23,492 nucleotides of DNA from Escherichia coli (GTDB taxonomy: Bacteria > Pseudomonadota > Gammaproteobacteria > Enterobacterales > Enterobacteriaceae), in NCBI RefSeq assembly GCF_003334765.1, contig NZ_QOWT01000046.1; one strand, written 5' to 3'. Both the position numbers and the translations under genes were made by a program. Every line of letters starts with the position of its first letter. Positions within the stretch are counted from its first letter, which is position 1. The notes below the pieces were generated by a model, which was not told the DNA's origin, searched no databases, and worked only from the letters and a program-made list of their open reading frames with translations. Shown piece after piece: positions 14,299 through 15,273 of this stretch.

Positions 14299-14313
14299 CA
14301 CTTATTTTCCCTG

Positions 14314-14337
14314 GCTCGCTTTTGCGGGCTTTTTTTT
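14314..14337 (+). terminator. Intrinsic terminator after the tRNA cluster
   Basis: GCTCGC-TTTT-GCGGGC hairpin (one G-U pair) followed by T8. Confidence 0.65.
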
Positions 14338-14343
14338 AAATGT

Positions 14344-14558
14344 CTCACAATTCAGGCGGTTGACTGTTGTCTGGTTTGCGGGGAGTTTGTTAAAAGAAAC
14401 TGGCATGGTGAATCCCCCTGTGCGGAGGGGCAATCAGCGAGTAGGTATATGGGATAATCGCGGATTCAGGTGCTGGTACTGAATTCACCGGGAGGCACCC
14501 GGCACCATGCAATGGCACATAGCGCCACTCTCCAGCCCCTCTCCGGAGGGGCTTTTCT
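14344..14558 (+). repeat. Structured non-coding module, copy A (candidate sRNA or small-ORF cassette)
   Basis: Shares conserved blocks with copy B 468 bp downstream: CTCACAATTCAG, TTGACnGTTG, TTTGTTAAAA, CATGGTGAATCCCCCTGnGCGGAGGGG, TCACCGGGAGGCACCCGGCACCATG, and terminator AGCCCCTCTCCGGAGGGGCTTT (14535-14558). CATGGTG (14404-14410) pairs with CACCATG (14503-14509), enclosing two hairpins. Confidence 0.6.
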
Positions 14559-14747
14559 GTGCCGGATACATCACAGTTTCTGGAACCTTAGGTACTACAG
14601 TATCAGTCAGGGTGCTATATTTTCAGATGTGATGAAAGCCTGTCAGCAGGCAGGGCGTATCGGAAATGACCCAGTAGAGAAAACGTTGACTCAGATACCG
14701 GTGCTGAGTTACCGGGAAACCGGCATCACATGACCGCTATCCTTCCA

Positions 14748-14775
14748 GGCCCATCCGCTCCGGTGGGCCTTTTTA
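14748..14775 (+). terminator. Intrinsic terminator between the two modules
   Basis: GGCCCA-(10-nt loop)-TGGGCC followed by TTTTT. Confidence 0.6.
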
Positions 14776-14811
14776 CTGCAGAAAACAGGTTCCCCGTTAA
14801 ATGCTATGTTG

Positions 14812-15045
14812 CTCACAATTCAGTAAGTTGACAGTTGCCTGTCAGACTGGGCATTTGTTAAAAAAATTTCGCATGGTGAATCCCCCTGAGCGGAGGGGCG
14901 ACTGGTGACGGTATAATCTCTGATTATCAAAACGAGAATGACGCGGGTTTAGTGGCACCGGGCTGAACTCACCGGGAGGCACCCGGCACCATGTGCATGA
15001 TGATACAGATACGCGGCTTTAGCCCCTCTCCGGAGGGGCTTTCTT
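14812..15045 (+). repeat. Structured non-coding module, copy B
   Basis: Same conserved blocks as copy A with divergent linkers; perfect TATAAT at 14912-14917; outer pairing CATGGTG 14872-14878 with CACCATG 14987-14993; terminator at 15022-15045. Confidence 0.6.
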
Positions 15046-15273
15046 ATGGACAAAAAAAGCCCGCGCTGGGAGACGCGGGCGGCAAGGAATAAACAATAAA
15101 ACGTGAAGTAATATTTCAGCTGGCGAATAATACCCCATAGTAATCACTCTGCGCAACTGCGCGGTCTTTTTCGAATTGCGGGCTGTAGTCTCCCTTCTGC
15201 CATTGTCCTGTAACTTCCGGACTTCAGCCTGCTCCTTATCTGACTCACAACATTATCCCGCCCGGGAGGATTC

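Follow-up and report, generated by a model that had tools for sequence, protein, structure and literature searches.

What takes the place of the toxin genes in a lambdoid prophage that is stx-negative? The question is raised by a prophage of Escherichia coli (assembly GCF_003334765.1, contig NZ_QOWT01000046.1), analysed here as a stretch of 23,492 nucleotides (the window). An initial annotation, made from the sequence letters, had described two related structured non-coding modules at 14344-14558 and 14812-15045, in the slot where phages encoding Shiga toxin (Stx) carry stxAB. We found that positions 14340-15050 hold a head-to-tail array of three small RNA (sRNA) genes of the STnc100 family (Rfam RF02076), denoted units 1 to 3. 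The two modules are units 1 and 3, and they belong to a catalogued family with experimentally detected homologues (PMC4104026, PMC5331693, PMC8550237, PMC12711010) rather than to an undescribed element. The novelty of the array is low; what is added is a third copy, a pseudoknot, a layout of scaffold plus variable tail, and relatives apparently embedded in mRNAs. The initial annotation had mentioned neither the third copy, located in the linker between the modules, nor the pseudoknot formed by helices P3 and P4, a convergent element on the minus strand and a fourth copy near DicF.

Membership in the family was assessed by an Rfam scan over the whole window at curated thresholds, the gathering score of RF02076 being 47 bits. 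Unit 1 gave a full-length match at 14374-14564 (136.3 bits, E 2.6e-30) and unit 3 at 14842-15051 (165.4 bits, E 9.1e-38), both spanning the whole 206-position model. STnc100 was first listed in Salmonella and is multi-copy in enterohaemorrhagic E. coli (EHEC); units 1 and 3 have the same closing helix, hairpins, terminator and location in the late region of a prophage. The closing helix, the conserved hairpins and the intrinsic terminator that characterise the family were recovered in the window copies by cmscan, folding, the terminator scan and covariation. We also built a covariance model, R1, on 100 distinct homologous cores and used it to search the window, where it scored 90.6 bits at unit 1 and 96.2 bits at unit 3.

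The sRNA of unit 1 was placed at 14403-14557 on the plus strand from the Rfam and R1 matches, the folds and the motif coordinates. Its helices are P1 (14403-14410/14503-14510), P2 (14415-14430), P3 (14434-14438/14472-14476), P4 (14462-14469/14479-14486) and P5 (14488-14502), followed by a tail (14511-14533) and a terminator (14534-14553) with a U-run. Unit 3, placed at 14871-15044 (+) by Rfam, R1 and its 90% identity to the copy 3' of stx2B, has P1 at 14871-14878/14987-14994, P2 at 14883-14898, P3 at 14902-14907/14956-14961, P4 at 14945-14952/14963-14970, P5 at 14972-14986, a tail at 14995-15020 and a terminator at 15021-15040. In both units (G)CATGGTG pairs with CACCATG(C) to form P1, which encloses the two hairpins P2 (stem CCCC/GGGG) and P5 (CCGGG-AGGCA-CCCGG), and the terminators are identical (AGCCCCTCTCCGGAGGGGCT followed by a T-run). 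The initial annotation had proposed this pairing, the enclosed hairpins and the terminator, and all of them were found at the positions it had given. Its contrast between conserved blocks and diverged linkers was borne out as well: the two units are 94% identical in P1/P2, 97% in P5 and the 3' strand of P1, and 100% in the terminator, as against 34% in the variable insert and 33% in the 3' tail. Upstream of unit 1 lies a further conserved block, CTCACAATTCAG...GTTGACTGTTGTCTG (14344-14373, +), which is 83% identical to the block at 14812-14841 preceding unit 3.

Unit 2, the diverged copy in the linker (14603-14776, +), was detected by R1, by a sub-threshold Rfam match and by its minimum free energy (MFE) fold. 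R1 matched its core at 14625-14734 with 31.7 bits (E 6e-8), and Rfam STnc100 scored 30.1 bits (14603-14776, E 4e-5), below the 47-bit cut-off; by the Rfam criterion unit 2 is a diverged relative and not a member. All its helices are preserved through compensatory changes: P1 is GUGAUG/CAUCAC (14628-14634/14724-14730), P2 GCCUG/CAGGC (14638-14651), P3 UAUCGG/CCGGUG (14658-14663/14698-14703), P4 ACUCAG/CUGAGU (14689-14694/14704-14709) and P5 CCGG-GAAA-CCGG (14712-14723). The MFE fold gave the nested helices (z = -2.6), and P3 was read off the sequence. The unit has its own 3' tail (14732-14746), its own terminator (14747-14770, +) and an extended -10 element, TGcTATATT (14613-14621, +).

Folding each of the two modules separately gave the same multi-branch structure. 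The z-scores of the single-sequence folds are modest (-1.3 and -2.2), and thermodynamics alone is insufficient to establish the structure. Homologues were collected by an exact-pattern scan of species-representative genomes, which yielded 92 loci from Escherichia, Enterobacter, Klebsiella, Citrobacter, Kosakonia, Pantoea, Trabulsiella, Superficieibacter and others, and by a scan of viral contigs, which yielded 120 loci. The search pattern fixes P5, so that covariation in P5 can stem solely from copies found later by the model. In the resulting core of ~110 nt, P1 closes a junction with the hairpins P2 and P5 and the P3/P4 pseudoknot. When 100 distinct cores were simply aligned with MAFFT, the five-helix structure was 87% paired, compared with 41-47% when the partners were slid, and covariation was 0.279 compared with 0.03-0.08, a value attained by none of 500 shuffles. 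On 134 distinct model-aligned sequences 90% of cells were paired (40-44% with slid partners), 24 of the 28 tested pairs changed on both sides, and covariation reached 0.394 (0.04-0.07 with slid partners), again attained in 0/500 shuffles. The covariation supports the five helices in homologues from many Enterobacteriaceae, in agreement with the earlier suggestion that pairing rather than linear sequence is conserved in structured RNAs.

The pseudoknot arises because the segment just 3' of P2 pairs, as P3, with the loop of P4, and the two helices interleave. In the MAFFT alignment P3 was 71% and P4 93% paired, with double changes at every P3/P4 pair; in the model alignment the values were 88% and 92%, the figure for P4 being unbiased because P4 is absent from the model. 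P3 occurs in the window as CUGGUG/CACCGG and UCAGC/GCUGG, and in other copies as CCAGUC/GACUGG, CUGACAA/UUGUCAG, GGCAAA/UUUGCC and UUUUGAUC/GAUCAAAA. An alignment-free test in which P3 partners were swapped between copies gave a mean of -8.9 kcal/mol for cognate and -5.7 kcal/mol for swapped partners, against a background that is high because many copies use related CUGG/CCAG-type sequences; column-based pair counts are the better evidence for P3. The Rfam consensus line printed by cmscan is nested, with P1, P2, P4 and P5 shown and P3 absent, and it is from this line that we judged the pseudoknot to be missing. Several unpaired nucleotides are near-invariant: AAU follows P1, GC precedes P4, and the loops of P2 and P5 contain U..GCGG and AGGCA, respectively. 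Among divergent copies the P5 stem covaries (CCUGG/CCAGG, CGGAG/CUCCG, UCGGG/CCCGA) while the AGGCA loop stays constant. Other structured elements were considered and rejected: CsrA sites, tRNA, hepatitis delta virus-like and twister ribozymes and the ZTP riboswitch did not fit in topology or motifs, and ARAGORN and Rfam gave nothing for them.

Each of the outer units is preceded by a putative promoter. In unit 1 this is TTGTCT, a 17-nt spacer and TTAAAA (14367-14395, +), then 7 nt to the G of GCAUGGUG, and in unit 3 TTGCCT, 17 nt and TTAAAA (14835-14863, +), again 7 nt before GCAUGGUG. Among 120 upstream-non-redundant copies, 81 carry a -10-like hexamer within ~16 nt upstream of P1 (50 +/- 5 in shuffles), and the hexamers peak 5-7 nt upstream of P1 (51/120 copies), which would place the transcription start at the first base of P1. 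The same geometry is seen in PasD2 of enteropathogenic E. coli (EPEC), which spans NC_011601 741157-741328 (172 nt) as estimated from coverage by RNA-seq and by ligation and sequencing of interacting RNAs (RIL-seq; PMC8550237). Its promoter, TTGACT-17-TTAAAA, lies 8 nt (7 if the -10 is TAAAAA) from the estimated 5' end, which is the first base of its P1. The Rfam model of STnc100 begins ~28 nt upstream of the 5' end given by the PasD2 data and the promoter geometry. At the other end, a strict search for a hairpin plus U-run was applied to 207 distinct copies; 118 of them have such a terminator, in most cases 18-30 nt past P1. Folding of the predicted transcripts of units 1-3 showed P1 closing from nucleotide 1 and the tails largely unpaired. 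P2 and the terminator have an identical 3' strand, GGAGGGGC, both in unit 1 (14426-14433 and 14544-14552) and in unit 3 (14894-14901 and 15031-15039), and P2 could compete for the terminator 5' strand GCCCCUC; the terminators of other genera differ and do not show this feature.

Comparison with an Stx2a phage (LC616079) defined the position of the array. By blastn, window positions 13901-14336 align to its methylase-tRNA segment, and 14813-15365 align at 90% to positions 3505-4061 of locus L002, a segment that starts 46 nt after stx2B (end at L002 3459). The stx2A and stx2B genes of LC616079 occupy the place of window units 1 and 2, and the interval 14337-14812 takes exactly their position, as the initial annotation had proposed. 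The breakpoint of homology falls in the upstream conserved blocks (14344-14373 and its counterpart 14812-14841). An STnc100 copy begins in LC616079 75 nt 3' of stx2B, and unit 3 with its flank is 90% identical to it. Unit 3 is, by position and alignment, the counterpart of EcOnc27/sRNA103; sRNA103 is the EDL933 name (Gruber and Sperandio 2015) of EcOnc27, described in Sakai (Tree et al. 2014). The site 3' of the late promoter pR' has been described as a 'moron' insertion site with convergent sRNA pairs (Tree et al., PMC4104026).

A convergent partner is present in the window too. The terminator scan placed a candidate sRNA at 15052-15110 on the minus strand (15110 to 15052), with a terminator at 15080 to 15059, GCCCGCGTCTCCCAGCGCGGGC (GCCCGCGUCUCCCAGCGCGGGC), followed by U7. 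Like EcOnc27/sRNA103, unit 3 lies upstream of nanS-p and is followed by a convergent minus-strand RNA, as in the 'dyad' of PMC4104026, and the candidate takes the position of the AsxR/AgvB-type anti-sRNAs of EHEC prophages. The arrangement differs in that the window is without stx, carries two extra family copies in the stx slot and has a partner unlike AsxR/AgvB: no Rfam match to these was obtained at a permissive E-value, only chance-level ones such as OmrA-B at 25 bits. By eye the candidate agrees at most positions with the EPEC RIL-seq sRNA 'E2348C_1409.E2348C_1408.IGR' (PMC8550237 fig. S5). A comparable convergent terminator follows the STnc100 copy of locus L092. Where Stx phages carry toxin, this stx-negative prophage has three sRNA genes of the STnc100 type together with a convergent partner, and the value of the finding lies mainly in correct annotation.

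Homologues of the units have been studied in several strains. STnc100_4 was detected by Northern blot and 11 EDL933 copies by RNA-seq, uninduced (PMC5331693), and uninduced cultures contain homologues in abundance (PMC5331693 table 1; PMC8550237 table S2). EcOnc27 of EHEC Sakai was detected by Hfq crosslinking and analysis of cDNA (CRAC) and by Northern blot (PMC4104026, PMC7873438), and Hfq binding in vivo was reported for the Sakai/EDL933 copies of EcOnc27/sRNA103 located 3' of stx2B. PasD1 and PasD2 are abundant and Hfq-bound, and both their RIL-seq contacts and a predicted seed map to the 3' tail (PMC8550237); the seed, UGUGAG, and the chimera coordinates fall within the 3'-most 50 nt, immediately ahead of the terminator. 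Hfq-dependent stability was reported for the Pas sRNAs as a group, while pasD1/2 were not significantly altered in Δhfq (PMC8550237 table S2). A further report places STnc100 75 nt downstream of stx2 and finds it in outer-membrane vesicles (PMC12370729). STnc100 is among the most abundant annotated sRNA families of enterobacterial genomes, its variants are part of a clinical-outcome model, and the stx2-adjacent copy was recently tied statistically to clinical outcome (PMC12711010).

PasD1 and PasD2 (EPEC E2348/69; Pearl Mizrahi et al. 2021), for which EcOnc13 is a reported homologue, are distant relatives of the units, and a 2026 preprint (Zhu, Shabalina and Storz) links PasD to STnc100 by structure. 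They too lie directly upstream of a 617-aa esterase gene and downstream of Q, and they share the promoter geometry, the layout of tail seed plus terminator, and the P3/P4 pseudoknot, with AAUGAUC/GAUCAUU in the loop of GAGUUCUG/CAGAACUU. They differ from the window units in an R1 score of only 29 bits, in a P5 reduced to GCG-GGAGG-CGC, and in being far apart in the genome according to the preprint, whereas the window copies are in tandem. Neither the window nor any of the loci retrieved contains the PasD or PasA probe sequences, the PasD probe complement having been sought in the window with up to 3 mismatches allowed. The copy at locus L012, which comes from E69, a derivative of E2348/69, is another STnc100-like one and not PasD. 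We regard the window copies, on sequence grounds, as homologues of PasD and not as PasD.

With these data we consider it reasonably probable that the units are autonomous trans-acting sRNA genes in the moron site, with a conserved 5' scaffold and differing seed tails. Each gene would consist of a weak sigma-70 promoter whose start site is the first base of P1, the ~110-nt core, a poorly conserved, single-stranded tail of 15-27 nt and the intrinsic terminator. By analogy with the homologues, the RNA would be produced in the lysogen independently of Q and bound by Hfq through the terminator hairpin and U-tail, and the variable 3' tail would act as the seed pairing with target mRNAs, as in PasD. 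The fully paired, structured 5' core would be the common scaffold, and the three copies, differing chiefly in tail and insert, would present three specificities on it. During lytic growth Q-modified polymerase starting at pR' would transcribe through all three terminators. The initial annotation had placed the modules on the Q-dependent late transcript between the tRNA genes and nanS-p; the position holds, while the units look autonomous, each with its own promoter-like element and terminator. Paralogous sRNA genes, sometimes adjacent and with their own promoters and terminators, are also known from Qrr1-5 and OmrA/OmrB, in which the conserved part is the seed; in the window units the seed-like tail is variable and the non-seed 5' domain is conserved.

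Several observations weigh against this interpretation. The evidence on expression, 5' ends and Hfq comes from homologues. The start sites remain putative because a generic promoter scan made no call at the proposed promoters of units 1 and 3, and the -10 TTAAAA is without the canonical final T. Being short and interrupted (UUUUCU, UUUCUU), the U-tails are weak for Hfq binding. The only effects reported, those of sRNA103 on fimZ and espA, are indirect, and ribosome-footprint coverage relative to transcript (RCV) is high for some EDL933 copies, up to 3.2 (PMC5331693). A scaffold role leaves the near-invariant loop and junction nucleotides (AAU, U..GCGG, GC, AGGCA) and the retained pseudoknot unexplained. 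Finally, terminator-less copies apparently within mRNAs, in the dicF-dicB spacer and upstream of KdgM porin genes, indicate that the core may act other than by trans base-pairing.

The first of these terminator-less copies is the fourth family member of the window, on the minus strand at 1270-1400 (1400 to 1270; R1 55.2 bits, E 7e-15; fold z = -3.4). It lies between DicF and a dicB-like start codon, with P1 lengthened to ~15 bp and P5 as CCUGG/CCAGG; no terminator was found after its core, and it did not reach the Rfam threshold. In K-12 the dicF-dicB spacer of the Qin prophage is occupied by the same element (NC_000913 1649453-1649583, locus L217 854-984; 49 bits, E 3.6e-14). Such a copy, having no terminator, would belong to the dicB message. 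Single cores also lie 80-200 nt upstream of a KdgM-family porin gene (PF06178) at 13 chromosomal loci in at least four genera, Klebsiella, Enterobacter, Kosakonia and Citrobacter (L006, L014, L015, L025, L029, L068, L069, L076, L078, L080, L083, L085 and L091; for example L015 4866-5200). At these loci no canonical terminator was found between core and porin gene, and a PelW-like lyase gene follows the porin. The copies may represent use of the same RNA domain as a 5' leader.

These copies bring in a second explanation, in which the core itself is the functional unit. It would bind a ligand or a protein, or serve in RNA processing or stability, acting in cis from the 5' end of varied RNAs, and the sRNAs would be prematurely terminated leaders or decoys instead of base-pairing regulators. 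The conservation resembles that of an aptamer, with covarying stems, near-invariant junctions and loops, a retained pseudoknot, and an AGGCA loop unchanged in divergent copies although the P5 stem covaries; pairing of the P2 3' strand with the terminator 5' strand in units 1 and 3 could act like an expression platform. The pseudoknot, the scaffold and variable seed layout with the 5' end at P1, and the apparently mRNA-embedded members suggest a role of the core beyond that of seed carrier. However, no riboswitch of Rfam matched in the window, and the terminators vary between genera, so that the alternative P2-terminator pairing is not general. Moreover, homologues accumulate as discrete Hfq-bound sRNAs with RIL-seq contacts in the 3' tail, and transcription running on from a constitutive promoter into the lysis genes would harm the lysogen. 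We hold the notion of a pseudoknotted, portable ~110-nt RNA domain as a tentative and rather doubtful alternative to autonomous sRNA genes. If it were true, the domain would be hosted by seed-bearing sRNAs of late regions, by the dicB message after DicF, also in K-12, and by the leaders of KdgM oligogalacturonate porins; STnc100, PasD and EcOnc27 would form one class of 'domain plus cargo' RNAs, and the domain they share would have an undiscovered partner.

A third explanation takes the units for late-promoter leaders of the pR'-qut-tR' type, at which Q loads, so that the small RNA is a terminated by-product like lambda 6S RNA or StxS. The units lie between Q and lysis genes in many genera, each with a promoter, a short RNA and a terminator; lambda 6S RNA and StxS, the latter an Hfq-dependent sRNA, are likewise short terminated late-leader transcripts of lambdoid phages made in lysogens. 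Those RNAs arise from the Q-loading promoter itself, whereas in the window a separate promoter and terminator, lambda-like pR' and tR', lie directly after Q at 12376-12480 (+; sequence reading and terminator scan). The -10 is TAAATT, followed by the initially transcribed AACGATGGG, and tR' is CCCGCCGCCTGGCGGG with a T-run (12458-12473). This pR'/tR' is an element distinct from the STnc100 units, which lie ~2 kb downstream, past the methylase gene and three tRNA genes. In addition, no -10-like pause element was seen in the initially transcribed GCAUGGUGAAUCC of the units, and the same core occurs beside several unrelated Q and holin families and away from Q. We judge a Q-loading function of the units very unlikely. 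The terminator ~80 nt downstream of pR' would itself yield a short StxS/6S-like transcript directly after Q, and at the Enterobacter locus L044 (6400-6500) an identical pR'/tR' layout follows Q, upstream of the STnc100 copy there.

Marginally less credible still is the proposal, made as an option in the initial annotation, that the modules encode small leader peptides starting at the ATG of CACCATG, with GGGAGG in P5 as Shine-Dalgarno sequence. The open reading frames exist mechanically (14507-14632, 41 aa; 14991-15092, 33 aa), GGGAGG lies 11 nt upstream of the ATG, and ribosome-footprint-to-transcript ratios are high at some of the EDL933 copies. Their coding is unsupported, however: the ATG is kept in only 54 of the 207 distinct copies, most others having CACCAC, and in 48 of these 54 the stop codon lies past the terminator or is absent within 110 nt. 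The predicted peptides, of 8 to more than 40 aa, are unrelated, and their sole common stretch, SPSPEGL, results from translating the terminator hairpin. The covarying helices P1 and P5 sequester the ATG as well as the Shine-Dalgarno-like sequence, and core lengths differ by non-multiples of three, which argues against leader peptides and coding-gene remnants alike. That the modules are decayed remnants of a protein-coding gene, as a pseudogene call of PGAP in VR50 at the equivalent of 14393-14518 (-) might suggest, can be practically dismissed in view of compensatory changes preserving five helices over 134 distinct sequences, the non-triplet length variation, the strong Rfam match and the block structure of an RNA gene with terminators. 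The call itself, a partial pseudogene labelled 'hypothetical protein' that runs across the unit 1 core on the minus strand (L001 4095-4220), is probably an annotation artefact; the RefSeq/PGAP annotation of this region includes none of the sRNAs. A type III toxin-antitoxin system with ToxI-like tandem repeats of ~36 nt was also rejected: the units are 180-470 nt apart, have their own promoters and terminators, and neighbour esterase, holin and Q genes.

The exact 975-nt block containing the array, carried for example by the strains VR50 and ML35, is 100% identical in the 30 top-ranked E. coli genomes listed, and 248 records have at least 99% identity; of 5426 complete genomes, 353 cover 80% or more of the block, and 2870 contain a related place at least once. 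Across genera, family copies have a Q-like gene upstream and a holin gene (three PHROG families) or an esterase gene downstream, and arrays of 2-4 copies recur in several genera. Head-to-tail arrays of 3-4 copies with 180-600 nt spacing were seen at L016, L019, L020, L032, L034, L073 and L093 (for example L020 1281-1917), in Leclercia, Superficieibacter, Trabulsiella and others, usually just upstream of a holin gene. IpeX, which occupies a similar slot in the DLP12 prophage of K-12, was rejected as a member, there being no R1 or Rfam match in the quuD-nmpC-essD region. In Phytobacter (L024 7216-7478, -) a tRNA gene follows the family copy within 2 nt on the same strand; the window array directly follows three tRNA genes.

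The window as a whole is a lambdoid prophage, as judged from the open reading frames, ARAGORN and PHROG matches, with the gene order RusA, Q, a 94-aa open reading frame, methyltransferase, three tRNAs, the array, esterase, and holin, endolysin and Rz. The Q gene (11554-12375, +) matches PHROG phrog_127/25523 'anti-termination protein Q-like' with E 1e-111. The DNA methyltransferase gene (12950-13999) is followed by the three phage tRNA genes (14049-14298, +; anticodons CAT, TCG and TCT; ARAGORN and Rfam tRNA), after which the terminator scan found a terminator at 14313-14330. Downstream of the array, the nanS-p-type SASA carbohydrate esterase gene (15274-17127, +; 617 aa) was assigned from its open reading frame and the RefSeq annotation of the identical VR50 region. 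The gap between esterase and holin genes, where PasA/PasC lie in EPEC, contains a terminator-ended intergenic element (17132-17245, +). It showed no match to the PasA probe and no Rfam family above chance, and as a candidate for a PasA/PasC-like RNA nothing in this interval exceeded chance. Further Rfam matches in the window are a sok antitoxin RNA of the hok/sok type (9350-9524, +), DicF (1419-1470, -) and IS009 (23273-23471, +).

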